DNA from: an uncultured delta proteobacterium
GTDB lineage: Bacteria > Desulfobacterota > Binatia > UBA9968
Assembly (NCBI GenBank): GCA_963755715.1
Contig: CAVWLW010000050.1
Coordinates: 53,189-117,188, forward strand
Reading direction: 5' to 3'
DNA length: 64,000 nucleotides
The notes below the pieces were generated by a model. That model had not been told where the DNA came from and searched no databases. It saw only the letters and a program-made list of their open reading frames with translations. Below are positions 30,077-58,780 of this stretch, piece by piece. The position numbers and the translations under genes are program-made. Positions within the stretch are counted from its first letter, which is position 1; every line of letters begins with the position of its first letter.

Positions 30077-30205
30077 CTTGCACCCGATCGCTCAGCCGTG
30101 CGCAGCAAGGTCGCGAGTGTCGCCATGTCTCTGCCAAAATAGGCCGCCACATCGCTTAACCGGTAGCCAAGTCTCCGAACCAATACGTACGCCGCTATCG
30201 TGCGC
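30077..30205 (-). pseudogene. RAYT-family transposase C-terminal (HTH-like) remnant
   Basis: The minus-strand frame gives IAAYVLVRRLGYRLSDVAAYFGRDMATLATLLRTAERSGASK*. This is closely similar to the fragment at 49803-50078 (ALVGYVLIRRLGYKLKDVAKCLGRDVATVSSLVSRF) and to the C-terminus of the intact RAYT (..HGYRLNEIASHLDVHYATVSRRLKRIE). Confidence 0.4.
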
Positions 30206-30329
30206 GCCTAAACGCGAGACCGAGTTTCCGCGACGGAGCGAATCGCAACATTAGTGGGCGATTGAAACGGTTGTCCGGCGGGATTGAGATCGCTTTCAAT
30301 CCGCGCGGCATTCTTGCTTCCATTTTAAA

Positions 30330-30497
30330 TTATTTTTTCGCGGCTTGCTGTTTCTCTAGCAGTTGTAAAACATTTTTCTTGGCTTCGTCGGGTTTTTTAC
30401 CCGATGCGCTTGCCGCTTCTTCGAATGTCTTGTTGGTGATGTTTTTGGAATTGCCCATGTCATCATCCGGCTTTTGGCATCCACAGTTATAACACAT
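30330..30497 (-). CDS. small Cys-containing hypothetical protein (55 aa)
   Basis: AAGGAGGAAG lies 9 nt upstream of the ATG. Product: MCYNCGCQKPDDDMGNSKNITNKTFEEAASASGKKPDEAKKNVLQLLEKQQAAKK. N-terminal CxxCxC cluster with a Lys-rich tail. No family recognised. Confidence 0.4.
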   Translation of the reverse strand: MCYNCGCQKPDDDMGNSKNITNKTFEEAASASGKKPDEAKKNVLQLLEKQQAAKK

Positions 30498-31306
30498 AGA
30501 TTGCTTCCTCCTTGTCGTGGAAGGGGCAAGCATTGTGCCACCACTAAGGAACCTCTGTGGGAGGACAAAACTGAGGAAAATCATATACTGGCGCGGTGAT
30601 GGAAGATGAATTTGTCGGCTTTCACATAAAGTTTGTAAGTATATTGCCGCCGATTCTGGCGGGACAGCAATGCACCCAACCGCGCGCGACCAGGCGCAGC
30701 TCTGCTGACGGCAATCCGAATCCCAAGAAGCTGCTTGCTCCGACCCAGGAAGATTTCTCAGTTCAGATTTGAAGATGCGGTTTTTTAGTACGCCACCGAC
30801 AAATGAAGTCGGCGTTGTAGCGAACGGGACGAAAGTCGCCCGCCGCTGATAGTCACCGCCACGAGGTGGGGATTCAGAACGAGCGGATGATCGACCCGAC
30901 GATGGTGAGGCTGCCGAACCATTCAACGGTTTAACGAATCGATTCTTACTGTTGCCTGGCGCCTCACGCCCCTTCGAGGATGCAGGTGACGAGGGCGGCA
31001 TTTCAGACTGGGTGAGCCTGAATAAACAGGTCACTGACACAAAAAGCCACACCCTCGTCACCAACTCTTATATTCGTTTCTCTCCGCTCCCGCTAGCTGC
31101 TAAATTCCAATGGTAGACCCCATAGCTTTCCCCCAATCGTTTTTTAATCAACGCGGAGCCGCTAGTTCGTTCGGGTTGGCGTCGAACGCCTTTTACGAAC
31201 CGCACAGACCTTACAATCTGCACAATCTGTGTGCGTCTGCTTGACAGCTTTCGCTGTGATCGATTATTCCCGAAGCTCAGGAGATTGTACTGGAGGGAGG
31301 GCAGGC

Positions 31307-32290
31307 ATGCTGGCTCGAATTGAGTATTTTTTCTTTGTGCTGTTCGTTCTTCTCGCCTTCACGGCCGACGCGCGGAGCCAAAGCATCGTCGCTTCGGACA
31401 GGGTCGTCGTCAGTTATCCGAGCAAGTCCATCACCAGTTTTCCGATCCTCGAAACGGCGCAGCGCCGCGGTTTCTTTCGCAGAGAGAATCTTGACGTGAG
31501 CGCTGTCTATATGCGCGGCGGCATCGATATCAAAGCCGTCCTTACCGGCGACGCCGATTTCGGCACCGGGTCGACCACTGCCGTCACCGCATTCGTCGCC
31601 GGCGCGCCGCTGCGTGTCGTTATGAGCCTCAACTCCTACGTCGATCAGGCGCTCTATGCTCAACCGAAGTACCGCACTCTGGCCGAGCTCAAAGGCCAAT
31701 CCATCGGCTCGCTCAATCCCGGCGGGCTGGTCGATACGTTGCTGCGAAAAGTCATCGTTCAAAACGGGCTATCGCCCGAACGCGATTTTATTCTGCTCAA
31801 TATGGGCGGCACGCCGGAACGATACGCCGCGTTGAAGGCGGGCACCCTGGCCGCCTCGATGCTGAGCGCGCCGCACAGTTTGCACGCGGAGAAAGAAGGA
31901 TTCACCAAGATCGCCGCGACCCGCGACTATGTGGACGTCCCTGGCACCGCGCTGGTCGCGCATGTTGACAAAATCAAAAAACAACCGGAGATGATCAAGC
32001 GATTTTTGCGCGCCACGTTGCGCTCGATGAGTTACATCCGCGAAAATCGCGCCGATACGATGCAGATGATTGCCCGCGAATTCGCCATGGCCCCTGACAT
32101 CGCCGCCCTGGCTTACGATAAGCTCGTCGAGTTACTGAGCGTGAACGGCAAGATTCGCGTCGACGGATATCAACTGCTGCTCGACTTCGCCCGCGCGGCG
32201 CAAAAAATCGAGCGGCCGATCAACGCCGCCCAGCTCGTCGACGACAGGCTGCTCGATGAAGTGGTCCGTGAAACCGGCATCAAGCGTTAG
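31307..32290 (+). CDS. ABC transporter substrate-binding protein, NMT1/THI5-SsuA-like (nitrate/sulfonate/bicarbonate type)
   Basis: GGAGGGAGGG RBS. Signal peptide MLARIEYFFFVLFVLLAFTADARSQ. The mature part resembles SsuA/TauA-type binding proteins (..GSLNPGGLVDTLL.., ..LKAGTLAASMLSAPH..). Confidence 0.7.
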   Translation: MLARIEYFFFVLFVLLAFTADARSQSIVASDRVVVSYPSKSITSFPILETAQRRGFFRRENLDVSAVYMRGGIDIKAVLTGDADFGTGSTTAVTAFVAGAPLRVVMSLNSYVDQALYAQPKYRTLAELKGQSIGSLNPGGLVDTLLRKVIVQNGLSPERDFILLNMGGTPERYAALKAGTLAASMLSAPHSLHAEKEGFTKIAATRDYVDVPGTALVAHVDKIKKQPEMIKRFLRATLRSMSYIRENRADTMQMIAREFAMAPDIAALAYDKLVELLSVNGKIRVDGYQLLLDFARAAQKIERPINAAQLVDDRLLDEVVRETGIKR

Positions 32291-32350
32291 GCAGGTCCAT
32301 ACTCTCTCTAACCGCCGCCTATGGCGGCGAAGATCGCGTACATCATTCTT

Positions 32351-32647
32351 TCACAGTATGTAATCGAGCACGCACAGACCAAAGCGTTTCTTCGCCTCGA
32401 AAATCCAATGCCGGGAATAGCGGCGGTCATGCACCAACGTTAAGAATTTCTGAACCTTGAATCTTCGAGAGAAGTCCGAACTGAACGTTTTGAACGCTCC
32501 GGCGTCTTTTACCTTGAACTTATGAACGCCCGCACTCTGGGGCTTGTATCGAAGATGCCTTGGTCCGAACTGGACAAGTTCGCCGAGAACTGCTGAATCG
32601 AAGTGAGAAGCTGCTTTGGTCCGACCGGAGTTCTTGAAGTGACGCAA
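32351..32647 (-). pseudogene. RAYT/IS200-like transposase 5' fragment (copy 2), terminated after ..FEAKKRFGLCVLDYIL*
   Basis: The minus-strand ORF ends HDRRYSRHWIFEAKKRFGLCVLDYIL. It contains the 35-bp sequence gaccaaagcgtttcttcgcctcgaaaatccaatgc at 32377-32411, which is 31/35 identical to 34047-34081 at the other side of the TIR gene. Confidence 0.4.
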
Positions 32648-33937: not shown

Positions 33938-34200
33938 TCACTCCTGCGCGGTGCGCCCCGCGTTGAGCTGCATGCTCTCGGCGATAACGTTTGGACCTGT
34001 GTCTTTGACCAGTAGGTGAACGTGGTTGGACGTGACCATGTAGTTCAGCACGGAAAGACCGAAGCGCTTCTTCGCCTCGAAAACCTAATGCAGATACGCT
34101 GTCGATCGTGTGCAACGTCTTGAAAAATTCGGTCTTCTGATGATTGTTGACCGGTGAAGTTGTTTCCTGAACTATTGCCTGTTGCCTCGTGCTTAATGCC
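33938..34200 (-). pseudogene. RAYT/IS200-like Y1 transposase 5' fragment (copy 1) retaining the HuH motif, ending at a TGA abutting the TIR gene
   Basis: The minus-strand frame gives ..FEAKKRFGLSVLNYMVTSNHVHLLVKDTGPNVIAESMQLNAGRTAQE*. NHVHLLV is the HuH signature, comparable to ..AYCLMANHYHLLVE.. in the intact RAYT at 45255-46079. Upstream degenerate codons (GIKHEATGNSSGN) match the IYHxTxRGN N-terminal motif. Confidence 0.5.
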
Positions 34201-34512
34201 TATTTTCGTGCCAGATATGGCCTGGCAGAGAGTGACGGTTCGCGCGCGGCATCGTTTCCCTTAGAGCCTGCCTTTCGGCTTCAAAAAGCCGCCTCTAAGC
34301 CTTTATTTAAAGGATGCCTTTTATGCTACCGTGGAGTTGTGAAATCAACAGCTTCCCTTGGTCCGACCCGCGACCCTGACTCAGATAGTACGCACCGGGA
34401 ATGAGAATGCGTAATGGTCGCGCCATTGCCACCTTCTTTATTATAGACATTAGCTCATCGTCGAGAAATAAAAGTCTGATCATCCTTGCATGCCAGATAG
34501 TCCTGCAAATTG

Positions 34513-36054: not shown

Positions 36055-36242
36055 ATTAAAAAGATTTTAGAAAACCTCTTGCCGCCTTGTCTTGACGTCA
36101 TTCCGGGGTCGGACCTCAACGCAAATTTACGGTCGGCAGGGTAAACTTATAGGAAAGTTGATTGCCCGTCTGTTCTTCAGTTGATGTCACTTCTACGCGT
36201 AAGGTTTTCCAGTCTTTTGATCCCATCTGGCAGCTTGAAATA

Positions 36243-36399: not shown

Positions 36400-36620
36400 A
36401 AGCAGCGCCTTCCCCGGATACCTGCTGTCAGCGCCCTGCTTGGCTGCGCTTTGCCCGGTCATCGAGGGGCGGACCCAAGTGGTTGAACGATTGAAACAAT
36501 TGGAACGACTGGAACTCTTACCTTCGGACTGTTGCCTGTTTCCTAATGGCTGTTGCCAATTCGTGGGAACTTTGAACGGTCGCTGTCTTGCAGCACAGGG
36601 TTGTGATGAACGAGGGCGAT
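36400..36620 (-). pseudogene. heavily degraded RAYT remnant (..GNRQQ.. and EFQSFQLFQSFN segments)
   Basis: Minus-strand translations give ..PLGNRQQ.. (matching the RGNxRQ N-terminal motif) and EFQSFQLFQSFN (a triplicated version of the TQSFN motif). It shares gttgcctgtt / ggaac word content with the remnants at 37.9k, 40.9k and 58.5k. Confidence 0.3.
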
Positions 36621-37466: not shown

Positions 37467-37899
37467 CTGACGTCGTCGAAAAGGCAGAACGCAAAGAGCA
37501 TAGCGCCTGCAAGAGAGAATATGTTTTTCTTCATTGCGTCCCTGTCACCATCGCTGTGCCTATTTTGTACCTGAATTTGGGCAGAACATACACCTTCCAT
37601 TGCCGAAAAAAAAAGCCAAGCGACCCTCGGAATGGTTGGATTTTCTTTTTGATGTTTGGTTCTGGTCCGCGCTGATCTGAGAGGCTGATCTAAGAGCTTG
37701 TAAACTCTGCCATCGGAGGTACCCTGCGCGCCATGGATCTCAAAGACACCGTCACGCAATTCACCGCGCAGGTCGAGCGATTCGTCACGCATCCCGCACG
37801 CCGCTGGCTTTGACGGCAATCTGATTTTGACGTTCTCAATAAACCCCACGTTTCCGAGCGTTCTGCCAGTCCGTTCTCCAAACCTCGCACTACCCGTCG

Positions 37900-38357
37900 G
37901 ATTTTCAAGCCACTGGAACCACTGAAACGATTGGAACACATGGAACCGCTCTTCGGGTGTAGAACGTTTTGAACGGACCCCGGACTAGATCCGGGGAATT
38001 GACGGCTTGAACGATTTGGACAAATCCTATTTACGTTGAACTTTTGAACCGTTGAACGCGTCTTTTCTTACCACGCCTCACCCTTCACCCCTCACTCCTC
38101 ACGCTGACTTTGATCTACTGTTGCCTGTTGCCTCGTGCCTTATGCCTATTTACGATGTGATTGACACCTTCTCCCGTCGGCGATATTTCTTTCGCAAGAG
38201 ATTGAGAGTGTTTCAAATTTCTGATACCGAACTCGGTGGATACTCGGAGAATCGAACATAGCGCTGATTCGTACCGTCCTTCGAGCCAGTGGCCTAACCG
38301 GTTGTTGAAAAACCTGATTTCAGGCTGTTCAAAAAGGTCCAGATGCGAGGCGCGCAT
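37900..38357 (-). pseudogene. RAYT 5' remnant (N-terminal motif ..GVNHIVNRHKARGNRQQ* followed by degenerate FQSFQWFQ segment)
   Basis: ORF 38115-38357(-) ends ..TGEGVNHIVNRHKARGNRQQ* (compare PGAIYHLTGRGNARQ in the intact RAYT). Downstream, 37905-37945 encodes RFHVFQSFQWFQ, which is TQSFN-like. 38112-38150 (ctactgttgcctgttgcctcgtgccttatgcctattt) recurs at 34170 and 58748. Confidence 0.4.
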
Positions 38358-38511
38358 AGACCGTGATCGTGTCCGTGAAACGTGACCGAGAAGACCGCAC
38401 GAGCACGACCACGCTACACGAACACGAATTCAAGCGAGGCGATCGAGCGCAACGAAGCAGGTGGGCCTTTTTCAACAGCCTGCTAGCGCTCGCGCTTTAC
38501 GGAGGAGACCC

Positions 38512-39084
38512 ATGTCATTGCTGACACTGCAAATGCCGGCCCTTCCCGACCCGGTCAAAGTCGTCCTCCAACCCGCGACGACGGCGTTGTTGGTGTTCGA
38601 CATGATCGATCGTATCTGCAAAAGCCAGCCGAATTGCACCGGGGTCATGGTGCCGGCCCTCGCCTCGCTGCTGGCGCGGGCACGAAAAGCCGGCGTGTTC
38701 GTCCTGTACTCTACTCGGGAGCCGGAGAGCTCGAAGTGGATGCCGGAGGTCGCTCCCGCTCCCGGCGACCCGATCGTCAAGTCGTATGCTCAGGACCGAT
38801 TCTACAGCACGGATCTCGACAAAACGCTGAAGGCCAAGGGGATCACGACGCTGATTCTCACCGGCTGGAAGGTCAGCGGCTCAGTGGTCTATACATCGGT
38901 CGGAGCGACACTGCGGGGGTACACCGTGGTCGTGCCCACGGACGCCAGCTTAGCCGCAACGGACTACGAAGTGGCGATCGGCCAATTCCAAATATTGAAT
39001 CAGAATAGCGCGAACGCCACGAACGAACCGCTGAAGGCAAACGCCTCAACCCTGAGCCGTGCGGATATGATCGTCTTTCAGTAG
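38512..39084 (+). CDS. isochorismatase-family hydrolase
   Basis: GGAGGAG RBS. MSLLTLQMP..TALLVFDMIDRIC (Asp of the catalytic triad) ..ILTGWKVSGSVVYT (Cys region). 190 aa. Confidence 0.7.
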   Translation: MSLLTLQMPALPDPVKVVLQPATTALLVFDMIDRICKSQPNCTGVMVPALASLLARARKAGVFVLYSTREPESSKWMPEVAPAPGDPIVKSYAQDRFYSTDLDKTLKAKGITTLILTGWKVSGSVVYTSVGATLRGYTVVVPTDASLAATDYEVAIGQFQILNQNSANATNEPLKANASTLSRADMIVFQ

Positions 39085-39145
39085 AAAAGGCGGCTTCGTG
39101 ATATATTGTCGTAAATATTTTCGTAAATATTTCGGTCGGACCAAG

Positions 39146-39463
39146 CTATATCGTTGCTTCATCAACGATTTCATTCCAAAAGAACGTGTTTTGAGACCTT
39201 AGAGCCTCACTTTCGCCGGTGAAATTGCTGGAGTAAGCTTCGGCGGGCTCGCGCAGTGCGTAAGTTCCATCGGTTTCGATCACGTCGCGATGGGCAGCTT
39301 TGAAGCCAAGCTCGCTTTTCACCTCGTCAATAAACGCCAAGCTTCCAACCGCGATCGATTCGGACCAGCGATCATCACGAACCGCCAAGCCGTTCCCCAG
39401 CCCTTGCTCGATCCATTGGTGGTGAGCACTTTGAAAATCTCCAAAATCCGGAAATCCGCTCAA
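39146..39463 (-). pseudogene. RAYT middle/C-terminal fragment
   Basis: ..QWIEQGLGNGLAVRDDRWSESIAVGSLAFIDEVKSELGF.. aligns with ..EFVRDGMASRPWDDLKGQIYLGSEAFIEKHASG.. of the intact RAYT. The REP-like motif agcctgtccccttttctcgttcc lies at 39485-39507. Confidence 0.45.
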
Positions 39464-39605
39464 CTTACAATGAAAAGAAAAAGTAGCCTGTCCCCTTTTC
39501 TCGTTCCAGTGCGACAGCGGCGAACCGCATCCTTGAGGCCGGGCGCCGGCTGGCTTATAGTCTGCGGAGAAACCGAATTCTCGTCATGCCGGCAGAGAGG
39601 ACACC

Positions 39606-40667: not shown

Positions 40668-40714
40668 GCAGCACAGAGGAAATAGAGGGTCCTTGGTAGC
40701 TGGGTCGGACCCGC

Positions 40715-41250
40715 CTATGTCCTCGCATCTTCGAAGCTTTCATTCCAGAAGACAGCGGATTTGAAGCCATAGACCTCGCTCTCTTCGCGTAACACATGCG
40801 TTTCCTCAAACTGCTCGACTTCACGATGCATCGCTTTGCTGTCGAGCTCGCCTTTGATCGTCTCAGCAAAGCCAAGCTGCCAACCGCGATCGCTTCGGAG
40901 CAACGCTTCACGTTGAACATTGAACCTTGAACTTTGAACGACCGTTTATCTGAAACGTCTTGAACGGAGCGTATCCTTCGACCAGCTCAGAGCCCGTCCT
41001 GAGTTTTATCGAAGGAAAGAGCGGAAGATCGAGCCGGTCATGGTGAGCCTACCGAACCATTAAACGACTGGAACGTTTGGAACCGTTGGAACGTCTGGAA
41101 CTCCCGTAAACGATTTGAACGGTTTGAACGATTGGAACGGGCTACGGTATTCGTTGGCACGGACCATGTTGAGATCCATGTAGATCAGACAGCGATGCAG
41201 GTGCTCGTCGGTCTCAATGGCAGTGGCATGATATTAAGTCAATAACTTAA
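40715..41250 (-). pseudogene. RAYT remnant (LNPVRA-like region, triplicated TFQ/SFN segment, middle region)
   Basis: 41160-41250(-) encodes ..YMDLNMVRANEYR.. (compare YIVLNPARV). 41040-41150(-) encodes NRLREFQTFQRFQTFQSFNGS. 40715-40903(-) encodes ..LGFAETIKGELDSKAMHREVEQFEETHVLRE.., homologous to the fragment at 39146-39463. Confidence 0.45.
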
Positions 41251-41367
41251 CTCATGCCTGACCCCAATTCTGCGATCTTCCTCTAACTCGTCCCGCCTCG
41301 AGGGATTCCGAGTTGCCAAAGTCCGGGCACCGAACGTAATGTCAGTCCTTCACGATTTGCCAATCGT

Positions 41368-43980
41368 TCACGGCGTCCCGATCAAGCCGTTGGATTGGAT
41401 GTTAAAGCCGTTCATCAACCATATCGCAACCGCCCCGGAAATCTGTCGCCACAGGATATCGCTCTTGCCGTCACCGTTGAAGTCACCGGTGCCGGCGATT
41501 TGCCAATCGTTTCCCGGCGTCCCGACCAAGCCGTTGGCTTGGATGTTAAAGCCGTTCATCAACCATATCGCAACCGCCCCGGAAATCTGTCGCCACAGGA
41601 TATCGCTCTTGCCGTCACCGTTGAAGTCACCGGTGCCGGCGATTTGCCATTCGTTTCCCGGCGTCCCGACCAAGCCGTTGGCTTGGATGTTAAAGCCGTT
41701 CATCAACCATATCGCAACCGCCCCGGAAATGTGTCGCCACAGGATATCGCTCTTGCCGTCACCGTTGAAGTCACCGGTGCCGGCGATTTGCCATTCGTTT
41801 CCCGGCGTCCCGACCAAGCCGTTGGCTTGGATGTTAAAGCCGTTCATCAACCATATCGCAACCGCCCCGGAAATCTGTCGCCACAGGATATCGCTCTTGC
41901 CGTCACCGTTGAAGTCACCGGTGCCGGCGATTTGCCAACCGTTTCCCGGCGTCCCGACCAAGGCGTTGGATTGGATGTTAAAGCCGTTCATCAACCATAT
42001 CGCAACCGCCCCGGAAATGTGTCGCCACAGGATATCGCTCTTGCCGTCACCGTTGAAGTCACCGGTGCCGGCGATTTGCCAACCGTTTCCCGGCGTCCCG
42101 ACCAAGGCGTTGGATTGGATGTTAAAGCCGTTCATCAACCATATCGCAACCGCCCCGGAAATGTGTCGCCACAGGATATCGCTCTTGCCGTCACCGTTGA
42201 AGTCACCGGTGCCGGCGATTTGCCAATCGCTCTCCGCTGTCCCCAAGTCAAGCGCCGCGCCGGTGGCCCAGTTACCTGAGGTTGCGCCGGTGATAAGCTG
42301 ATTGAAGCCCCAGGCGGCCGCCGTGCTTGACGGGTCGATTTGGGTCGCCGAATAATCTCCCCAGCGACATGAAGCACTGGTCTTTTCGTTGGATACTGTG
42401 TTGCACGGGACAAAGCGAACGCCATCAAACTCCACGGTGAACTGAGTTGCCGACGTTGCGACAACGTCAAAAGTATACCCCGCGCTCGATGAGTTCGGAC
42501 CGCGGAACATGAGCATGGCTGCATTGCCGGTCGGAGCTCCCTGCGATGGCCACGTGCGCGTCGCTGTGACGAACGCATCTGCGGCGTTGGTCGCAACCGA
42601 CGGATTGAACACGTTATCGTCAGACGCAGTAAACAGATCTATTGTGAACAGCGGAGCCGTGCCCGTCGTCGAGAACTGGTAGAGCCGAGCCACAGCACGG
42701 CCATTGTTCACGGCGTGGACGTTCCATAGGGACGTTCCGTTCTGAATGCTGGCGGATTGGAAGCGACCATCCAGAGTGTCGAGCCTCTGACCGTTGGGTT
42801 GTGCAGCATCCGGCGCAGCCGTCCATGCCGTGACCGTGATCGGCGATGTGGTGCTCAACGTATCGGAACCGACACTGGCGCCCTCAGTGAGCTGATACCG
42901 CGTGATCGAGTTGCCGGAGCCCGAGCCCGGCGAGAGGAAGTACGGCGTCGTGCTGGAATCCTGGACGAGCGGAGGCGCGATATTAAACACCAAGTCGTTG
43001 AAGCATATGGCGCTAGGTGCTGTGCCGACGAGTGATGGCGCCTTATCGATCGAAATGATCGCCCCCCTCACCGTGGTGATGCCGAAATCGTTCGCCGTGA
43101 TGAACCAGCGCGCGCTGCTATATCCGGCGCTTGGATAGTCCCAGGAGCGGTTGGCTGCTTGTTTGCAAAAAAATGAGCCTCCTTGGCTGAGAAAGAAACG
43201 ATACTGGAACCACGTGGTACCAGTGTTGTCGGTGGAAACGGCGAAGTATTGGAACTGATCAGCGTTGGTGCTGTCGTCCGAGTCCGCCGATACAAAGAAG
43301 CGGTCCACCGCGGGATCGTAGAGCACACGCGGATCGAACAATGTCTGGGTTGCCGGAATCGAAAAAGCATTGAAAAAGGTCTTCAGCGATACTTTGCTGA
43401 CCAGCGCGCAGTTTGTCTTGTTGTAAACGCCGACCTCGACGTTCGTCACCGTAACGATGTTGGCTGGGCCGGCCGCACCGTGAATGTCGGACGGCAAAAA
43501 CCCCACCGCCGAGTTCGTCTGACAACTGGGCGGGACAGTTGGCGATTCCGACGGCGGCGGCTGCGGCGCACTTGTGAACGGGCCTTGCCGTTGTGCGGGC
43601 GCAACAGGCTGGTTCGTCTTGATCTGCCCCAGCGCGTCATCACCGATCGGGATTCGCCTGTGAATCGCTCTCGGGGACACATCCTGTTCGGACATGAGCA
43701 TGTCTTCGGACATGATCATGCCCAGGGGCATCTGGTAGGTCCCGCCGCCGATTGCTGTCTGGATCTGGACTTGAGCTTGCGCAGCACCCGATGGGCCGAT
43801 GAGTACGAAGCCTGAGGCTAGTCCAACGAGACGGACCAGCCAGAGGGCGATCCACCTTACGCTTCGGCTTGATGCTCTTTGAAAACTATAGTTGGCCACG
43901 TCACAACTCTGGAGTTCACAAGCACATAATCCAAGCTCGTGGCCCAGGTCAAACAGTCCTGACTCAGCCTGACCGTGCAC
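41368..43980 (-). CDS. secreted protein with N-terminal uncharacterised domain and six C-terminal FG-GAP/VCBS-like repeats
   Basis: 870-aa ORF. A signal-peptide-like segment (RWIALWLVRLVGLASGFVLIGPSGAAQAQ) follows a possible alternative GTG start. The C-terminal third is six copies of QIAGTGDFNGDGKSDILWR(H/Q)ISGAVAIWLMNGFNIQ(S/A)N(A/G)LVGTPGN(G/E/D)W. Confidence 0.7.
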   Translation of the reverse strand: MHGQAESGLFDLGHELGLCACELQSCDVANYSFQRASSRSVRWIALWLVRLVGLASGFVLIGPSGAAQAQVQIQTAIGGGTYQMPLGMIMSEDMLMSEQDVSPRAIHRRIPIGDDALGQIKTNQPVAPAQRQGPFTSAPQPPPSESPTVPPSCQTNSAVGFLPSDIHGAAGPANIVTVTNVEVGVYNKTNCALVSKVSLKTFFNAFSIPATQTLFDPRVLYDPAVDRFFVSADSDDSTNADQFQYFAVSTDNTGTTWFQYRFFLSQGGSFFCKQAANRSWDYPSAGYSSARWFITANDFGITTVRGAIISIDKAPSLVGTAPSAICFNDLVFNIAPPLVQDSSTTPYFLSPGSGSGNSITRYQLTEGASVGSDTLSTTSPITVTAWTAAPDAAQPNGQRLDTLDGRFQSASIQNGTSLWNVHAVNNGRAVARLYQFSTTGTAPLFTIDLFTASDDNVFNPSVATNAADAFVTATRTWPSQGAPTGNAAMLMFRGPNSSSAGYTFDVVATSATQFTVEFDGVRFVPCNTVSNEKTSASCRWGDYSATQIDPSSTAAAWGFNQLITGATSGNWATGAALDLGTAESDWQIAGTGDFNGDGKSDILWRHISGAVAIWLMNGFNIQSNALVGTPGNGWQIAGTGDFNGDGKSDILWRHISGAVAIWLMNGFNIQSNALVGTPGNGWQIAGTGDFNGDGKSDILWRQISGAVAIWLMNGFNIQANGLVGTPGNEWQIAGTGDFNGDGKSDILWRHISGAVAIWLMNGFNIQANGLVGTPGNEWQIAGTGDFNGDGKSDILWRQISGAVAIWLMNGFNIQANGLVGTPGNDWQIAGTGDFNGDGKSDILWRQISGAVAIWLMNGFNIQSNGLIGTP
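41383..42300 (-). repeat. six and a half tandem 141-bp coding repeats (near-identical at DNA level)
   Basis: The unit gccgttggattggatgttaaagccgttcatcaaccatatcgcaaccgccccggaaatctgtcgccacaggatatcgctcttgccgtcaccgttgaagtcaccggtgccggcgatttgccaatcgtttcccggcgtcccgaccaa recurs at 141-bp spacing, with only a handful of substitutions per copy. Confidence 0.85.
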
Positions 43981-45058: not shown

Positions 45059-45254
45059 GGTCTCCTCCTTTTGAATTGCCTGCCGTGGTTTTTTGGTTTG
45101 CTGCATGCTGGATAGATACGCGATGCGTATCATCTAAGTATTTCACCTCTTTTGTTGCCTGCAAGATGGGTTGCGGCCGGAGGGCGTGAAGAAGTCGGGG
45201 TATCCCGACTGTAAAAATTTTAGTGAAAGGGCCGGAGCTTGCGATACGACAGAG

Positions 45255-46079
45255 TCAATTCGCTTCCTCGATTCGTTTGAGTCTGCGGCTCACCGTCGCG
45301 TAGTGGACATCCAAGTGCGAGGCGATCTCGTTGAGCCGATATCCATGCGCGTACGCCTCGGCGATCGCCTTTTCGCCACTCTTTGCAAATATCCGCTGCA
45401 GCGAGGGCGTAGCCGCTCTCAATTGCGCGCGCGGTATCTCCTTAACGTCCTTTTTACCAGAAGCGTGTTTCTCGATGAACGCTTCACTTCCCAAGTAGAT
45501 CTGACCCTTGAGATCGTCCCACGGCCGACTCGCCATTCCGTCCCTGACGAACTCCCGATATCGCTGCTGTGCTCTTGATCGGCTCTTGCCAAATTGCTCC
45601 AGAATCCAGTCGGTGTGCAGAAACTCCGGCACGGATGCGAGTCCCGCGGTGGCCCGGTAACTGCTCCATTTCCAAGTGGATGCTTTGGCGCTGCTCTTGA
45701 CCCGCGCGGGATTGAGCACGATGTACCGACATAGTTCCAACAGATGCGAATCCCTTTCTACCAGGATCGCCTTGAATCGCCCCTGAAACAGATGTCCAAC
45801 CCGGTTGTGCCGGCGGTTAAAACTTTGCGTGTAAATGCCGTTGAGCTGGCGCATGCCGATCGAAAGGTTCGCCTTGGGCGTCTCCACCAGCAAGTGATAA
45901 TGATTGGCCATCAAGCAGTAGGCGCGGCAGATCCAGTGGTAGCGAGTCACCACCCCGGTCAGTGTGCTCAGAAACAACTCGCGGTCGGCGTCAGTAAAAA
46001 ACACTTTCTGCCGCGCGTTGCCGCGGCCCGTCAGATGATAGATCGCACCGGGAAACTCTAATCGCAGAGGGCGCGCCAT
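45255..46079 (-). CDS. REP-associated tyrosine transposase (RAYT; IS200-like Y1 HuH transposase, COG1943-type) with C-terminal HTH extension, apparently intact
   Basis: 274 aa with no internal stops. MARPLRLEFPGAIYHLTGRGNARQKVFFTDADRELF..YCLMANHYHLLVETP (HuH) ..GIYTQSFNRRHNRVGHLFQGRF (catalytic Tyr region) ..YIVLNPARV..WKWSSY.., then the C-terminal ..HGYRLNEIASHLDVHYATVSRRLKRIEE. Confidence 0.85.
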   Translation of the reverse strand: MARPLRLEFPGAIYHLTGRGNARQKVFFTDADRELFLSTLTGVVTRYHWICRAYCLMANHYHLLVETPKANLSIGMRQLNGIYTQSFNRRHNRVGHLFQGRFKAILVERDSHLLELCRYIVLNPARVKSSAKASTWKWSSYRATAGLASVPEFLHTDWILEQFGKSRSRAQQRYREFVRDGMASRPWDDLKGQIYLGSEAFIEKHASGKKDVKEIPRAQLRAATPSLQRIFAKSGEKAIAEAYAHGYRLNEIASHLDVHYATVSRRLKRIEEAN

Positions 46080-48125: not shown

Positions 48126-48438
48126 TAAGAAAACGCTCACCGCGGAGGCCTTCAAATCACGATGAATTTCCAAGGGGAGAAATTACGGTGTCTACCATCG
48201 GAATTTAGCAGGTAGCAGGATCTAAGAGAATCCTGTAAAGAGATTCTTGACGAGGGTGTGGCTCTTGGGGTCAGTGGCCTGTTTATTCAGGCTCACCCAG
48301 TCTGAAATGCCGCCCTCGTCACCTGCATCATCCGAGGGTCGACCGGGATGGTGCCATATTCTCTCACCAGAATACGTGGCTCTGTAAGTAGACGAGACCG
48401 AAGGATGATGAAATCTCGATCTACGAAGGAGGAGCTAC

Positions 48439-49890
48439 GTGTCAGAAGAAAAATCATTAGAACTCAGAGTCAGTGTGGACGTGGGGTATCGTCGTCACAG
48501 TGTGGCGATGGGGTTATCGAGCGGCGAGGTGCTCGAAGAGTTCGAAATCGAGCACCGGCCCGAGGGATTTCAAGAGTTCTTTTCTCGCATCGAGAAGCAC
48601 CGCAAGAAAGAGTACTGTGCAGTAGCGGTAGCCATGGAAGGTTACAACGGCTACGCGCGGCCACTGGACAGCATGGTCCGTCAACGGGGTTATCGGCTTT
48701 ATAATCTCAACAATCTAAAGTTTGCTCGCTTCAAAGAGATTTTCCCCGGAGCTGCCAAGAGCGACCGGATCGATGCGCGCAAGGGATTGGAGCTGTTTCA
48801 GCTAAGCGATCATCTGCCGTTGGCCAAAGAAGTGCTGCAGGAAGTCAGTGGGACACCGCCCGAGAACGAAGTCCTCAAACGATTAACCCGGCGCCGGCGC
48901 AGATTAGTCAACGAGCGGGTGCGGGTGGTGAACAATCTACAGGCCGATCTGCAAGCGGTGTGTCCAGGGTTATTAGAAATCACCGGTGAAGCAAGCAACC
49001 AGTGGTTTTTAAATTTTCTTCTCAGTGTGGACACTCTGCCCCAGCTTGCCCGGCTCAGACGCAGCACGCTTTTGAAGATCCCCTCGGTGGGAGTGAAGAG
49101 CGCCGCTATCATTGAGCGACTGGCAGAAGCGTGCTCACTTTAGCCAAGAGGTCGAGTGGGTCAGCGAGATGATCCAGGAAGATGCCAGGCGGTGTGTGGA
49201 GCTCGATGAGAAGATTAAGCGGTTAGAAACCAAGGTTGCCGAGGTTGCTAAGGACTCCAAGATCGCCAAGACTTTACGATCGATTCCGGGGTTTGGTGCC
49301 GTGTGCACTTCAGAATTGGCCGGCGAGATCGGCACCATCGAACGGTTTGCCTCTGAGGGAAGCCTTTCTTTGTATCTTGGCATGTCCACGTTGGACAACA
49401 GGTCGGGGAAATACCAGGGGACCAAGGCACCCAAGCACGTGAACACTCGGGCCAAAGCAGCGATGATGATCGCTTTGGATCGACATCGAAAATATGTCCC
49501 CGAGTCGCAGAGGTACTACGAAAAGAAACGAAGCGAGGGAAAGAAACACAACCAGGCGATTCGAGCTCTAGGTCGACACCTCGTCTCGGATCATTTACAA
49601 GATGCTCAAACAAGAACGGGAGTATGAGATTCGTCCTGAAAAGGGGAATACCAAGAGCCAAGGTCAGTCCGAGATCGTTCGATTAAAACGAAAATACGGA
49701 GGCCGAAAATCTCGAGCCAAGAAACAAAATAACAAAATCTACGAGCAGAGCGCGTACAGGCGTCATCACCGCTTGAAATTTCCAGCGGGATGTTCAGACT
49801 TTCTATTCTTGACAATCTGCCGCGAGTTGCACCGCCTGCTTCCTCAAAGGTTCGTTCTCGCTCATACGAACGGCAAACCGCGAGACTAAG
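48439..49890 (+). mobile_element. IS110-family transposase gene, disrupted by two frameshifts
   Basis: GAAGGAGGAG RBS, GTG start. The N-terminal DEDD domain (LRVSVDVGYRRHSVAM..AVAMEGYNGYARPLD) ends at 49143. The Transposase_20-type C-terminal domain (LRSIPGFGAVCTSELAGEIGTIERF.., ..YLGMSTLDNRSGKY..) is in a second frame (49112-49627). The typical ..RIIYKMLKQEREYE.. tail is in a third frame (49602-49889). I did not identify the element ends. Confidence 0.65.
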
Positions 49891-50078
49891 GAACTAACCG
49901 TTGCAACGTCTCGACCCAGACACTTCGCAACATCTTTAAGCTTATAGCCCAGCCGCCGGATCAGTACATATCCGACCAGCGCCCGCGATTGCGAGACCTC
50001 CCAGCCTCGGCCTGCTCCTTCAAGCACCTGGGGCTCCACCTCAACCGCTCGCGCGGCACTGCGAAACACGACGCTCAA
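49803..50078 (-). pseudogene. RAYT C-terminal (HTH-like) remnant
   Basis: ..RALVGYVLIRRLGYKLKDVAKCLGRDVATVSSLVSRFAV.. matches the C-terminal module of the intact RAYT and the fragment at 30077-30205. It lies next to the IS110 copy. Confidence 0.45.
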
Positions 50079-50330
50079 CTGCTTCTTACGCCGGAAAATC
50101 TCTTCCTCGTTAACTTTGCGCTTGAGCTTTTGGGCAAACTCCTCAGCTCCCGAAAACCGGTGGTCCTCAACCTGGTAATAATCCTCCCGATGCCCCCTCC
50201 GAGCGCTGCGCCGCCCAAGCCAGCAGAAGCAACATTGGGATTTTCATCAACCAGAAAGACGATTGACATCCCACCAGTCCGGCGGTATTGCTCGGGCCAG
50301 AAAAAAAGGTGGTTTAAAATTCCTATACAG

Positions 50331-52830: not shown

Positions 52831-53442
52831 TCAAAAAATGTCGTATTGCAAGACCTGATCCCGTGGGTTTGCTTGAAAGTGATTGACCATCCGAGCAATG
52901 GTCGCGTCGTCGAACATATCGCCGTTATAACTCAGCCAACCGCGCAGGCGGCTATTCTCCTCCACCATGTAGAGGTGCAGGTCGAAAATCGCTATTCCCG
53001 ATCCAAAATCCAGTTCCTCCGTTCTTAGCCCGGCAAGCTCAAGGGGAACGAGCGGAGTGTTCTGCAGCGCGAATGTCACCTGAAAGAATGGATTGCGACT
53101 CAGATCCCGATCGGGCCGTAACTCCTCGACGATTTTCTCGAATGGCAAGTCTTGATGAGCATACGCTTCTAGACACACGTCGCGCACGCGTACCAGGAGT
53201 TGCCGAAACGTAGGATTTGCCGAGAGGTCCGTACGCAAGACCAACATATTCAGAAAAAACCCGACCAGCTCCTCGGTCTCCTTGTGATTCCGACCTGCCA
53301 TCGGACTACCGACGACAATGTCATTCTGACCGGTATATCGCCGCAGCAGTGTTTGATACGCCGCCAGCAATATCATGAAAAGCGTGCTCCCAGATTCCTG
53401 CCCGAGGCTCTTGAGTCCGGCTAGGAGTTTCCCCGACAACAC
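52831..53442 (-). pseudogene. orphan NRPS condensation-domain C-terminal half (fragment)
   Basis: ..LAAYQTLLRRYTGQNDIVVGSPMAGRNHKETEELVGFFLNMLVLRTDLSANPTFRQLL..HQDLPFEKIVEELRPDRDLSRNPFFQVTF.. is near-identical in pattern to the C-domain halves in the main NRPS locus. No upstream HHxxxDG half or downstream A domain follows. It ends ..MVNHFQANPRDQVLQYDIF*, where the last codons are the REP-like motif tattgcaagacctgatccc. Confidence 0.7.
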
Positions 53443-53481
53443 AAAGGATTTCTGGGCGCCTATTCAACGAAAAAAGTAGAC

Positions 53482-54730: not shown

Positions 54731-54864
54731 GCCTGACCCCTTTTCTCGTCCCTGACATATTGGCGTTGCTACGACAGCGCGAACTTCATCTGCAGCCAAG
54801 ACAGTAACTTATTTAGTCAGTCGTCGTTAGGTTGCCTATCGGCATCGTGTATTTTATCGATTCA

Positions 54865-56300: not shown

Positions 56301-56301
56301 G

Positions 56302-56706: not shown

Positions 56707-56939
56707 ACAAAAACACTGCAGCCTCAGCGAGTTTTAGGCCGAAGCCATAGTCAACCGTGGCACTTGACCTCATGGCAGCACCATTTTGCCACACAGCGAG
56801 ATCAATTAGCCGCACTTTGTTCCTCGCGAATTCGCGACGGAATCGCAATATCCAATCGACCCTCCGTTTACGACGGCGATCCGCGTCCATCATCGAGCAT
56901 AGCTCCGGCATTTTTCTTGCGAAAGTCCTCGTCTGGGAC

Positions 56940-57764
56940 AAACACGATGAGTCGCAGAGAACAGCATGCTTGGTGCGTCGATGATATCCCGTATGTCGAA
57001 TCGAAGCGAAACGGGTTCAAGCCAATTGCCAATTGTTCTATTTGCTGGCATCCGCCTCGTTCGTAGAAGTTTCGTCGGAACTTTACACCGAGAATTTGCT
57101 CGCTTAGTTCGCGGGCGACAACGAAATGACTGACTGGCTCCGCAATCATTGGCTCGTGGAGGAACTCCGACACGGCACCGCGCTGAAACGATACATCAAT
57201 GCGGTTTGGCCGGAGTTTGATTGGGGCCAAGTTTAGCGCAAATTTTACGCCGAATACTCGCTGTGGAGCTGTGCGAAGCAATTGGGCCCCACGCACGCGC
57301 TCGAAATGGTCTCGCGATGCCTGGTTGAGACGGGTACGTCGTGCCTCTACACCATGCTCTACCGGCTCACCGAGGAACCGGTATTACGCGTACTGATGGC
57401 ACGCATGAAAAAAGACGAGATTTATCACTATAAAAACTTTTTCGATTGTTATTTGCGTTACCGGCATGACGAGCAGCCGCCGGCTCGCGTTGTGCTTAAA
57501 ACGCTATGCAAACGGATTTCCGAAATTGACGGCGAAGATGCCTTTATTACTTTTAAGCATGTCTTTGAACAATGCGTTCCTGACCGACCGTTTACTGCTA
57601 ACGACTACCGATTATTCTGTCACCACTTCATGGGTCTCGCGAAGCGCTATTTTCCGTACAACATGGCTGCACAGATGTTTCTGCGACCGCTGAACCTAGG
57701 GCCCTGGTACAAAGGCATTACCGTTCCGCTAGTCTCCACTGGTGCCAAATATTTCATTCACTGA
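56940..57764 (+). pseudogene. ferritin-like diiron-carboxylate protein (AurF/desaturase-like ExxH motifs), interrupted by TAG at 57234 and an upstream frameshift
   Basis: Frame 0 from ATG 57126: MTDWLRNHWLVEELRHGTALKRYINAVWPEFDWGQV*, then ..LVETGTSCLYTMLYRLTEEPVLRVLMARMKKDEIYHYKNFF.. (second D/ExxH motif), running to 57764. The likely N-terminal part (..RREQHAWCVDDIPY..) is in another frame (56764-57066). Confidence 0.35.
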
Positions 57765-57839
57765 TCGAGCGAAAATTGATGGGCTTATTGAAAAGAATCG
57801 TCGTCGGTCACGACTTGCGATGCAGCGGTGACATCGCTC

Positions 57840-58140
57840 TGCAATCGGCGATCGAGTTGGCCATGAGGTGCACCGGCGGCCACGACATCGCGCCGAACAT
57901 AGTCATAGGCGCTTCGAGCACAGCCGGCGCAACCTGATCGAGCTGATGCGCCATCTCACCGCGCTGCCCGTCTACGACAACAGCGCGCACGCCGATCCGG
58001 CGACCGGCAAAACTCCCAACTTGAACTGGTGCTCCACATGGAGCGCAGAAAGATACGCAACCCAACGATCTGAAACACACGCCCGATTAGGCAAGGCCAA
58101 TCGTTGCCACGGCGCTAAAGCTGCACCAGCGTTGATCCTC
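57840..58140 (+). pseudogene. second zeta-toxin C-terminal remnant (frameshifted)
   Basis: ..GGHDIAPN.., ..RRFEHSRRNLIELMRHLTALPVYDNSAHADPATGKTP.. and, in another frame, ..LELVLHMERRKIRNPTI..RPIVATALKL.. parallel ..GGHDIAAEHIRRRYEHSRLNLVDLLPRITALRVYDNSADADPAAGKIPKPKLVLHMENGKILNRRNL..KPIVAAALKLTAS of the intact toxin at 27512-28156. Confidence 0.45.
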
Positions 58141-58780
58141 ACGCTGCAACACAAACCGACGATGCGTGGCGTGCCCGCTCGACATCGGGACTTCGGTACA
58201 GGCGTTCGGGAATTTGTCTTAGAGACAGGCTACTTTTCTTCTCGCTGCGCGGTCGGCCGCGTGATCGCAATGTGCTTCCAAGTCCGAAAGTCTCAGCTAT
58301 TTCCCTTTGCCATTCTGAGTGACCGTACGATCTTTGCCGATTCAGGCATTCCCGTACTGCCACCACTTGCAACTCGTCCAACGGATTTTTCAACTGCACC
58401 GACCACGAATTCTCTTCATCCGTAGGCAGGCGATCTATAAGCTGCCTTCGCAGAACGCCGCCCGCTGCCCTTTGCGCAGGGTTGTATTCCTGGGTAACGG
58501 GGCCAGAAACTACACTTTGCACATTGAACCTTGAACCGGCGATCGTTCTATGGCCTATTGCCTTCATCCTTGCCTCAAGTCTATCTTGAGTGAAGCGCTG
58601 GAAGGTTGAAAGGGTTCCGTTTGGGAACATTGAAACTTTGAACGATCTCCGGCGTTAAACGTCTTGAACGGACTAGATTCGGGGGATCGCACGGCTTGAA
58701 CGATTTGAATTCTCCCGAGTATTACGTTGAGCTTTGAACCTTGAACCATCTCTTTACTGTTGCCTCATCCCTATTCGCTT
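58139..58780 (-). pseudogene. RAYT remnant (catalytic-Tyr region through C-terminal ..FGLGSTLRSRGRPRSEKK; degenerate N-terminal motif at 58748-58775)
   Basis: MFPNGTLSTFQRFTQ..IGHRTIAGSRFNVQSVV..YNPAQRA..ENSWSV.. aligns with LNGIYTQSFNRRH..GHLFQGRFKAILV..LNPARV..WKWSSY of the intact RAYT. 58620-58750 shares the gttcaa-rich ~170-bp architecture with 37940-38110. Confidence 0.45.

Follow-up and report, generated by a model that had tools for sequence, protein, structure and literature searches.

A probable pile-up of TIR-flanked tyrosine transposase elements in a variable island of an uncultured soil bacterium

Related Y1 transposase systems

The TIRYT/TIRtron class of genes was described with the consensus motif GGGGWSAS, and some genomes contain "a plethora" of genes of this class (Di Nocera, De Gregorio & Rocco 2013, PMC3733652). 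The TnpA-Y1 proteins of subclass 2.1 carry Bac_DnaA_C or HTH_23 tails and have no REPs (Quentin et al. 2018, PMC6006769); this subclass is the equivalent of TIRYT/TIRtron. As judged from their sequences, the elements analysed here appear to be TIRYT/TIRtron elements resembling subclass 2.1. They share with this class a Y1 HuH protein that is RAYT-like and ends in an HTH_23 or Bac_DnaA_C-like domain, the lack of REP palindromes, GGGGWSAS terminal inverted repeats (TIRs) that bracket the gene at a fixed upstream distance, solo and dimeric TIRs nearby, and, in some taxa, several distinct genes per genome. They differ in their extreme density here (four subfamilies, with no fewer than 12 copies or remnants between them, within ~34 kb), and in their uniform facing, some nesting and precise-end polymorphism between near-identical strains. 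Furthermore, neither G nor W, a family of 267 aa in which no HTH is recognised and which has GGTCSGACC ends and a hairpin at the ATG, is assigned here to a published subclass.

The RAYT/REPtron genes (Nunvar 2010; Bertels & Rainey 2011, PMC3116915; Bertels 2017, PMC5581495) encode the same Y1 HuH fold, the NCBIfam model REP_Tyr_transpos is the best-matching one, and short inverted repeats flank the gene in both cases. However, our elements lack GTAG-tagged palindromic REPs or REPINs, are not single-copy, and carry a flanking repeat that is kept across phyla rather than co-evolving with the host, while their neighbours vary by species. Like IS200/IS605, they are small, multi-copy Y1 elements with a strand-biased orientation that break assemblies, and the subterminal hairpin of W over the ribosome-binding region recalls IS200. 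In contrast to that family, the proteins are twice as long and have extra C-terminal domains, terminal inverted repeats are present, and scores with the NCBIfam transpos_IS200 model reach no more than 17-29 bits, the cut-off being 55. The island elements showed no tnpB partner.

The window (the whole 64-kb stretch of DNA that was analysed) contains an island at ~28.3-62.7 kb, whose content is strain-variable accessory and defence genes. The host is an uncultured bacterium, and the nearest RAYT orthologues come from "delta proteobacterium" and Candidatus Binatia MAGs. We propose, with a probability of roughly 70%, that this island of a soil bacterium is a pile-up of IS-like mobile elements, namely TIR-flanked tyrosine transposase elements of four subfamilies. 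The field is an extreme example of an already known kind of element (TIRYT/TIRtron).

Subfamilies, element ends and remnants

Profiles W, H, D and G were built from full-length relatives, H being the type of the intact gene, W the 267-aa family and D the combination of Y1 with DnaA_C; the G profile was defined by the C-terminus ...GLGSTLRPRGRPRSEKK. Searches with these profiles over the 64 kb of genome that our copy counts cover revealed one intact Y1 gene and at least 11 broken copies (11 remnants at E<1e-3, plus two weaker ones), every one of which lies on the minus strand between 30.0 and 62.7 kb (Table 1). No profile match at E<1e-3 was found within 1-30 kb or on the plus strand, and the remnant field exceeds chance. 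The dense field of minus-strand fragments proposed in the initial annotation is largely real, with three confirmed pieces at unlisted places. Two of the claimed fragments (36400-36620 and 44040-44075) consist only of GTTCAA/GTTCCA repeats, low-complexity similarity of the sort against which the initial annotation had itself warned, and much of 32351-32647, 33938-34200, 37900-38357 and 58139-58780 is the same repeat and not coding remnant. The fragments had been taken for copies of the intact gene; instead they derive from three other subfamilies, of which W and D have their own ends. Consistently, the tblastn search that had been proposed as a check, with the intact protein as query, matched only 34340-34426 (E 4e-4) and 33959-34252 (E 0.13), because the pieces belong to other subfamilies, whereas the family profiles recovered 11.

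Table 1. Features of the island, with positions in the window
Feature	Position	Strand	Description
Head-to-head TIR dimer AAGGGGTCAGCCTGTCCCCTT	28317..28340		At island edge
D-type 3' remnant	30001..30207	minus	Y1 + DnaA_C-like HTH; frameshifted; D profile match 30024-30207 (aa 249-309, E 8e-19); right TIR GTAGAAGTCGGACCCC 30005-30020
IS110-family left-end remnant	30960..31135	minus	Inverted copy of 48175-48345, mean column identity 89%
W remnant #6	32357..32626	minus	Left end GGTCGGACC 32618-32626; FK 32465-32560; W aa 19-55 at 32357-32464 (E 6e-10)
Nested pair, H/D-like N-terminal stub and W#5	33941..34426	minus	Stub 34352-34426, aa 1-25 (profile E 0.04, tblastn E 4e-4); W#5 left end 34360-34368, then CTTAGAG...CTCTAAG hairpin; aa 1-15 at 34208-34252 (E 2e-4), FK 34085-34207, aa 40-87 at 33941-34084 (E 6e-27)
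Solo W-type right end GGTCCGACC	36107..36115	minus	Strain variants L001 and L004 break here (36094, 36109)
Largest FK repeat	37890..38200	minus	
Probable D/H-like remnant FFNNRLGHWLEGRYESALCS	38253..38351	minus	aa ~73-108, D profile E 0.4
W remnant #3	39134..39495	minus	aa 161-266 at 39152-39469 (E 2e-47); right end GGTCCGACC 39134-39142; solo TIR GGGGACAGG joined upstream, 39487-39495
W pseudogene #2	40703..41267	minus	aa 103-136 (41132-41233, E 4e-14); internal FK 40921-41131; aa 189-266 (40718-40920; match 40754-40879, aa 203-244, E 7e-9); right end 40703-40711; solo TIR GGGGTCAGG upstream, 41257-41267
H right TIR, degenerate	45229..45242	minus	GCAAGCTCCGGCCC against orthologue TIR consensus GCAAGACCTGACCC, 10/14
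Intact H-type TIRYT gene	45255..46079	minus	274 aa; HuH motif NHYHLL, Tyr region RYIVLNP, C-terminal HTH
H left TIR TTGGGGTCAGGTCTTGCAA	46113..46131	minus	50 nt upstream of start codon
IS110-family element	48175..49700	plus	Non-coding 5' left end 48175-48438; frameshifted transposase (DEDD_Tnp_IS110 48439-49143, Transposase_20 49112-49627)
Second D-type remnant	49827..50207	minus	aa 175-302, E 1e-29; 42% identical to L001 D protein; degenerate right TIR faces IS110 element
Solo TIR	54732-54740	minus	
G-type remnant	58223..58468	minus	C-terminal module ...SYGHSEWQREIAETFGLGSTLRSRGRPRSEKK; G profile E 1e-38
Second G-type remnant	62139..62270	minus	G profile E 3e-11; outside initially annotated range
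W remnant #1	62555..62719	minus	Left end GGTCGGACA 62711-62719; hairpin; aa 1-18 at 62555-62608 (E 1e-6); outside initially annotated range
Other FK copies	30850-30960, 32465-32560, 34085-34207, 36440-36620, 40921-41131, 44040-44075, 58480-58800		

The intact gene had been correctly delimited, but it lies on the minus and not on the plus strand. Its product matches Pfam Y1_Tnp (1e-12) and HTH_23 at the C-terminus, the H profile at 1.6e-128, and REP_Tyr_transpos at 71.6 bits, under the 80-bit cut-off; it was found unchanged in 54 metagenome blocks. The gene is bracketed by the H-type terminal inverted repeat GGGGTCAGGTCTTGCAA and not by REP palindromes. This TIR accompanies orthologues across phyla: it was found upstream in 43/67 loci, where GGGGTCAG sits 45-55 nt from the gene, and inverted downstream in 34/67, with one match in each of the two wrong-orientation controls. 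Exact TTGGGGTCAGG pairs are present in Aliiglaciecola and Pseudoalteromonas, and two of the compared contigs (L007 and L009) carry full 16-nt H-type TIRs. The conserved TIR flanks do not fit the single-copy, domesticated, REP-dispersing RAYT under which the field had first been interpreted. The island copy may itself be immobile, since its right TIR is only degenerate.

Identifiable ends, of the GGGG(T/A)CAG type or GGTCSGACC, were found for H, D and W. The D subfamily (Y1 plus a DnaA_C-like HTH) has the TIR GGGGTC(A/C)GACTTCTAC, and in strain contig L001 an intact D gene (309 aa) occupies the position where the window keeps the tail only. W elements end in GGTCGGACC and GGTCCGACC, with the hairpin directly upstream of the ATG; elsewhere W genes lie mostly on 1-3 kb contigs, typical of assembly-breaking repeats. 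G is known here solely from C-terminal pieces; P0124, a homologue of the first G-type remnant, has Pfam Y1_Tnp with the same tail. G is only a putative mobile element, since no full-length G-type relative was found. GGGGWCAGG occurs five times against 0.64 expected, always on the minus strand. The proteins of different subfamilies are 26-34% identical (H and D, 34%), and W remnants are 77-83% identical to each other at the nucleotide level where they overlap, in agreement with the earlier view of mutually diverged, independently decayed copies.

The copies were broken by insertion of one element into another, by IS110 insertion, by FK repeats inside or against genes, and by deletions. A W element (W#5) is inserted into an H/D-type gene at 34368, and cross-species homology begins exactly at its left end (L007 position 16647 aligns to 34368). 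The D element has its upstream TIR region split by the IS110 left-end remnant. No transposition event was directly observed, no complete element was recovered as a pair of empty and filled sites, and the six W left flanks compared gave no target-site consensus.

Strain polymorphism and the FK repeat

The most interesting residue of the analysis is the FK repeat together with the precise-end strain polymorphisms. Among near-identical metagenome strains (97-99.9% nucleotide identity), deletions and whole-gene indels differ, and the same W pseudogene bears different deletions strain by strain. The break points (44017/44021, 41346-40971, 39507-39437, 39093, 38145, 36094/36109, 32743/32634, 31116 and 30001) all coincide with, or lie no more than ~50 nt from, a TIR, an element end or an FK repeat. 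The H left TIR is a shared homology break point in six strain contigs, and five different left flanks meet at junction 46131 among seven near-identical contigs. The suggestion that fragments lie at accessory-gene boundaries is thus supported, as the inter-strain break points map there. That deletion and indel end points fall nearly always on element ends or FK repeats suggests that the remnants serve as recombination and deletion substrates, shuffling the accessory genes between them.

At 21/83 loci of other organisms an extra copy or fragment lies within 10 kb (23/26 with the same facing), and clustering is therefore a trait of the family; multi-copy occurrence and clustering are usual for the class, so that the field, contrary to what had been supposed, is not atypical in kind. 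In the reading that we favour, small Y1 (HuH) elements of TIRYT/TIRtron type, each of them a gene between short GGGGWSAS-type TIRs, would have entered the island time and again, probably independently of one another. Fresh copies would prefer to land close to older ones, and the same facing of all copies is what single-strand, replication-coupled HuH transposition would be expected to produce.

FK is a co-oriented 7/9-nt repeat; its heptamers are GAGGCAn, GTGAGGG and GTTCAAn, its nonamers are GTTCCAnnn, and it has a conserved core (...CCGTTCAARACGTT). The core motif has nine matches where 0.84 are expected, every one of them on the minus strand. The rearrangements could in fact be driven by FK, which would then be a small single-strand element of the non-autonomous kind or else an array of iteron-like 9-mers to which the DnaA_C-like HTH binds; FK would insert in Y1 transposase genes and make adjacent deletions, and the field would be a by-product rather than the outcome of a TIRtron insertion bias. 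FK is found inside W genes at differing codons (aa 15-42, aa 136-189), in G-type ORFs (P0135) and against an IS110 left end; its 3' side is constant while the adjoining gene is cut at varying points, and the ~50-nt core recurs in independent metagenomes, both within W N-termini (L210, L212) and at intergenic hot spots (L213, L215, L216). Yet neither a hairpin nor a terminal structure was found in the core, the boundaries of the copies are ragged, and no clean presence/absence polymorphism of a whole unit was seen. Since this proposal also leaves unexplained the break points at element ends and the clusters of complete copies that occur in taxa lacking FK, we regard it as unlikely.

Alternative origins of the island

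We consider it quite unlikely that the island is a HuH-driven cassette platform, in which TIRs and FK would be recombination sites, the sole intact TIRYT would supply the enzyme in trans, and accessory and defence genes would be captured and exchanged beside the upstream TIR, like cassettes at attI next to intI. What this proposal captures is that the five left flanks all abut identical TIR nucleotide(s), at a distance of 50 nt upstream from the intact gene, and bring type I restriction-modification genes, HEPN/NTase and PIN toxin-antitoxin pairs and an AAA_21 ATPase gene, among others; that co-oriented TIR and FK units separate blocks of one or two genes; and that gains and losses of blocks end in these units. 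The short gene blocks between repeats, the strain-variable content beside a recombinase-type gene, and cargo with TIR-domain, restriction-modification and toxin-antitoxin genes do resemble integron cassette arrays and defence islands. Unlike in cassette arrays, however, the cargo lies on both strands, attC-like structured sites are absent, no repeat unit of constant structure bounds each block, and several junctions are truncated genes, not sites. No IntI-type tyrosine recombinase was detected among the ORFs scanned. Many break points are plain deletions within pseudogenes, and ordinary IS- and repeat-mediated rearrangement in a permissive island accounts for the same data. To our knowledge, there is no biochemical precedent for Y1 enzymes integrating double-stranded cassettes.

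The uniform facing and the low identity between subfamilies would also be expected if one ancestral RAYT had been duplicated in tandem, its copies diverging and decaying in place, as the initial annotation implied with old, decayed copies of a resident gene. Already disfavoured, this history is very improbable: domain architectures differ by subfamily, as do the terminal repeats of H, D and W, and each remnant has much closer relatives in other metagenomes than among its neighbours (amino acid identity between W#5 and L003_246 is 93%). Moreover, W relatives number in the thousands, and complete D and W copies with both ends occur in other contexts in other strains or organisms.

Chance or low-complexity similarity, or chimeric assembly of repeats, does describe the two repeat-only fragments and large parts of four other intervals, and generic (GTTCAAN)3 is common in unrelated metagenomes without linkage to Y1 genes (Y1 matches at 1/80 loci), but as an account of the field it is scarcely credible and for the 11 profile-supported pieces it is refuted, as their E-values range between 2e-4 and 2e-47, their profile coordinates run collinearly and their element ends are proper, and independent assemblies of at least five other samples contain the same mosaic (98-99.9% identity).

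Y1 transposase copies in the island

Four Y1 (HuH) transposase subfamilies, termed H, D, W and G, were distinguished, H being the type of the intact gene. This gene (45255-46079) codes for 274 aa, and both the HuH motif NHYHLL and the Tyr motif RYIVLNP could be read in its translation. Pfam detected Y1_Tnp (1e-12) and a C-terminal HTH_23 (4e-6). The initial annotation had described an intact RAYT/IS200-like gene: a real Y1 gene is present, it lies on the minus strand, and its top model, NCBIfam NF047646 (REP-associated tyrosine transposase), gave 71.6 bits, under the 80-bit cut-off. With this model the D protein of the near-identical strain contig L001 scored 89.1 bits, and the W database homologue P0019 66.7 bits. 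The D protein matched DnaA C-terminal models (3.5e-8), Pfam Bac_DnaA_C being listed too, and thus a C-terminal HTH is found in both H and D.

A tblastn search of the window, with the protein of the intact gene as query, matched nothing besides the gene itself except 34340-34426 (E 4e-4) and 33959-34252 (E 0.13). It follows that the fragments are not copies of the intact gene; since tblastn was nearly blind to them, subfamily profiles were used instead. The W profile represents a 267-aa family with >7,800 database relatives, and the H profile was derived from 84 orthologues. For D we used a 309-aa Y1 + DnaA_C protein, whole in L001, and for G the relatives of the 58-kb piece, including P0124, in which a Y1_Tnp domain is joined to the same ...GLGSTLRPRGRPRSEKK tail. 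The profiles were run on the window in all six frames with a threshold of E<1e-3. Eleven remnants were obtained, every one on the minus strand, with no match in 1-30 kb and none on the plus strand. Two further remnants, 34352-34426 and 38253-38351, are weak but plausible. At least 12 Y1 copies or remnants lie within 34 kb, and the field of remnants previously noticed around the intact copy is real and somewhat larger than described. Two of the pieces then assigned to the transposase, 36400-36620 and 44040-44075, proved to be a short repeat instead, which also makes up much of four other claimed intervals. For the G-type C-terminal module 18 database relatives were retrieved, all of them short proteins of 59-173 aa with no full-length member. 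It may be that G persists solely in truncated form, or that intact copies escaped the word-based search.

Y1 remnants detected by the subfamily profiles, and sites of the 24-nt palindrome
Feature	Location	Positions	Strand	Support
D remnant	window	30024-30207	-	profile E<1e-3
W remnant	window	32357-32464	-	profile E<1e-3
W remnant	window	33941-34084 and 34208-34252	-	profile E<1e-3
W remnant	window	39152-39469	-	profile E<1e-3
W pseudogene, single, two matches	window	40754-40879 + 41132-41233	-	profile E<1e-3
D remnant	window	49827-50207	-	profile E<1e-3
G remnant	window	58223-58468	-	profile E<1e-3
G remnant	window	62139-62270	-	profile E<1e-3
W remnant	window	62555-62608	-	profile E<1e-3
24-nt palindrome	window	62492-62515		
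24-nt palindrome	L003	3188-3205, 4063-4080		
24-nt palindrome	L213	67-84, 2704-2721		
24-nt palindrome	L214	274-291		
24-nt palindrome	L094	1169-1186		

Element ends and class assignment

All six of the six strain contigs with an identical H protein match the window up to 46131 and then diverge. This position is the first nucleotide of TTGGGGTCAGGTCTTGCAA, 50 nt upstream of the H start codon, and the 11-mer occurs as an inverted repeat around H orthologues in distant taxa, e.g., Aliiglaciecola and Pseudoalteromonas. The motif GGGGTCAG was found upstream of H orthologues at 43 of 67 usable loci, mostly at 45-55 nt (50 nt in the window), and its inverted form directly downstream at 34 of 67, the wrong-orientation controls giving 1 and 1. 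Full 16-nt terminal inverted repeats (TIRs) are present at L007 and L009, two H-orthologue loci; in the window the left TIR of H is perfect and the right one degenerate (10/14). The flanks of H are non-palindromic TIRs (GGGGTCAGGTCTTGCAA) rather than GTAG-tagged REP hairpins, and no fold was predicted for the upstream flank (z +0.87). The TIR of the D element is GGGGTC(A/C)GACTTCTAC. The W element starts with GGTCGGACC, carries a CTTAGAG...CTCTAAG hairpin directly before the ATG, and ends with GGTCCGACC just past the stop codon. We counted four W left ends, three W right ends and one D right end in the window, and five matches to GGGGWCAGG against 0.64 expected; these ends and motifs are all consistent with minus-strand elements. 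At the island edge, adjoining an ABC-transporter permease gene, a head-to-head TIR pair forms the palindrome AAGGGGTCAGCCTGTCCCCTT (28317-28340), possibly the footprint of a TIRtron that is minimal or has been emptied.

TIRYTs/TIRtrons are RAYT-like genes flanked by TIRs of consensus GGGGWSAS, without REPs (PMC3733652). Quentin et al. equated them with subclass 2.1 of their own scheme, with Bac_DnaA_C, HTH_23 or HTH_28 tails; such Y1 proteins, found in 14.9% of strains, rank as one of the largest groups of RAYT relatives, and according to that survey there is no evidence that they are mobile (PMC6006769). The window elements match this published class: they share with it a Y1 protein with a C-terminal HTH (H and D), GGGGWSAS-type TIRs at a fixed distance from the gene (the downstream one being degenerate in the window), and solo and dimeric TIR copies. 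With RAYTs/REPtrons they have in common the Y1 HuH nuclease domain with both motifs; however, inverted GTAG-tagged REP palindromes are absent from the H flanks, and the elements are not single copy. The earlier argument that the region is atypical because RAYTs are single-copy genes hence does not apply, the elements being TIRYT-type and insertion-sequence-like. They differ from IS200/IS605 in carrying TIRs and in scoring 17-29 bits with NF033573 (transpos_IS200; cut-off 55), and no tnpB was found among the scanned island ORFs; as to the subterminal hairpins of that family, W has its hairpin at the ATG. An integron was rejected: Pfam revealed no IntI-type integrase in 28 island ORFs, the repeats showed no attC-like folding, and cargo lies on both strands. 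Rfam, in both a gathering scan and an E<=0.1 scan, gave no family in the island.

Breakage of the copies and the FK repeat

Several copies were broken by other elements. At 34426-33941 an H/D-like gene is cut past codon ~25 by a W element that starts exactly at its left end. The D gene that is whole in L001 has, in the window, lost its first ~250 codons and upstream TIR to a sequence opening with an IS110-family left end. This left end is present twice, at 48175-48438 (+) and 30960-31135 (-), as an inverted pair 17 kb apart and 89% identical; the first copy is the 5′ end of a frameshifted element (48.2-49.7 kb) adjoining the right TIR of the second D remnant. Each IS110 copy is inserted next to a D-type TIR region; in L001, where the target is uninterrupted, it reads ...GGGGGAAAGCTAT^CGGGTCAGG... 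The 5′ non-coding left end of IS110 contains TTGGGGTCAG, identical to the TIRYT terminal repeat; this stretch may act as a bridge-RNA guide that targets TIRYT ends. Five strains have the W pseudogene at 41.2-40.7 kb, with five distinct internal deletions. A near-perfect 34-nt palindrome, GGCATGAGTTAAGTTATTGACTTAATATCATGCC (41225-41262, minus strand; DNA fold z -5.0), one arm of which is the W coding sequence 'tatcatgcc', lies exactly on a strain-specific deletion junction. By single-strand folding, no REP-like hairpin was found in the FK segments or the H upstream flank, and only 41225-41262 folds.

FK is a co-oriented composite repeat found beside most remnants. Its ~50-nt core has a 9-nt periodicity (...CCGTTCCAATCGTTCAAACCGTTCAACCGCTTCGCTCCGTTCAAGACGTT), with GTTCAAn heptamers, AATAGGCATGAGGCA..GGCAACAG heptamers and, in some copies, GTGAGGG runs on its flanks. 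The core motif GTTCAARACGTT, with <=1 mismatch, occurs nine times in the window (0.84 expected), each time on the minus strand. FK sites are located within W genes at differing codons, within the G-type ORF P0135 (from another sample) and against an IS110 left-end remnant; the 3′ side of FK is constant, while the truncation point of the adjoining gene varies. In two unrelated metagenomes (L210 and L212) the W N-terminus is interrupted by the same core, which is present in other intergenic hot spots too (L213, L215 and L216). Fuller copies include a perfect 24-nt palindrome, CACGTTTCGrGAATTCTCGAAACG, which in several samples lies next to FK heptamers and to stubs of W left ends; it may form the structured terminus of the FK unit. 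FK matched nothing in Rfam or among plasmids, and folding of its core gave no hairpin. A metagenome scan with (GTTCAAN)3 yielded Y1 matches at only 1 of 80 loci, the pattern being too generic for the scan to inform on FK. The N-terminus is missing from 32 of 121 aligned W proteins; we discarded this as a sign of recurrent FK insertion because many are cut by contig ends (nearest-neighbour analysis, L211). Our ideas on FK are that it could be a small element giving adjacent deletions, a binding array for a DnaA_C-like HTH, or this lineage's equivalent of the REP.

Clustering, strain variation and readings of the locus

At H-orthologue loci of other organisms an extra copy or fragment was found within 10 kb in 21 of 83 cases, and 23 of 26 of these were co-oriented, so that clustering and co-orientation are traits of the family; the window, with four subfamilies mixed, is an extreme case. 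For IS608 and ISDra2 it is established that Y1 single-strand transposition is coupled to one replication strand (PMC6006769), and the co-orientation fits such coupling. The GC skew is negative across most of the window, and we infer that one replichore arm contains the whole island. Where they overlap, same-subfamily remnants share 77-83% nucleotide identity, and for each of them sequences from elsewhere are closer; from these comparisons they look like separate arrivals rather than local duplicates. W genes are mostly on 1-3 kb contigs, as expected because repeats break assemblies.

The varied cargo of the island includes a TIR-domain protein, HpaB, a bestrophin-like protein, isochorismatase, an FG-GAP protein, an S15 peptidase, Usp and TauE; an IS3 integrase and a stray NRPS condensation-domain fragment are present as well. 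In other strains restriction-modification, toxin-antitoxin and ATPase genes lie left of the H TIR. L001 lacks 44017-39093 and 38145-36094, and L003 lacks 44021-40807; in nearly every case the strain differences end at TIRs, W ends or FK repeats, and homology between strains or species stops exactly at the element ends 46131, 30001 and 34368. Among the strain and species contigs compared, no whole element had a clean empty-site counterpart, and the flanking ABC permease, looked up for this purpose, was not on record. A conserved mobile unit of H + AKR was rejected, since AKR, FG-GAP and other cargo are absent beside the H orthologues of L007-L009.

We conclude that the locus is an unusually rich pile-up of decaying TIRYT-type, insertion-sequence-like elements in a permissive, strain-variable island. 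A bolder proposal is that TIRYT ends and FK are working sites of single-strand HuH gene-shuffling, in which an intact TIRYT would act in trans on solo ends and accessory or defence genes would be captured, exchanged and deleted beside its upstream TIR, FK being a new small element or a 9-mer DnaA_C-like HTH array that preferentially disrupts Y1 genes; we give it roughly one chance in eight. An HuH-based cassette-shuffling system as such is unlikely. The locus and its near-identical strain variants provide a natural experiment: elements both whole and broken whose ends are exact, together with nesting, co-orientation and a large number of alternative junctions at one TIR, make mobility and trans-action testable. 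For mobility, the useful feature is that near-identical strains differ in their many junctions at exact element ends. The locus also illustrates how such elements and their debris can structure a defence/accessory island, and it brings to light a conserved repeat of 50 nt, FK, found recurrently within Y1 genes in unrelated samples.

Some minor observations concern W and the neighbouring genes. In L087 (2400-3000) a complete W element, its left-end region tandemly duplicated, lies directly past the last CRISPR repeat (...CCCGTCAGTCGCCAACGATTCGAAGAGCGTGAGGCGG), downstream of cas4-cas1 and cas2. Three co-oriented W stubs (left end and first 11-18 codons) occupy one 5-kb toxin-antitoxin island of another metagenome, L213 (242-274, 1231-1284 and 2877-2912), and W genes break recurrently past ~codon 11-20 in the window, L210 and L213. 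The region 1172-3322 of L212 corresponds to window 37913-39465: the W right end, the isochorismatase gene (98% aa) and the FK block recur there, directly adjoining alanyl-tRNA synthetase, so that this relative has an island that is far shorter or located differently. Window 1-14300 is taken up by a multi-module NRPS in which modules are internally repeated, and the lone 203-aa condensation-domain fragment lies 40 kb from it, within the island (52831-53442). The 870-aa FG-GAP gene contains a 144-nt tandem repeat (41353-42229; 6.1 copies, 98% identity; 48-aa repeats), and its length varies by strain, being 870 aa, 787 aa or, in L006, broken.
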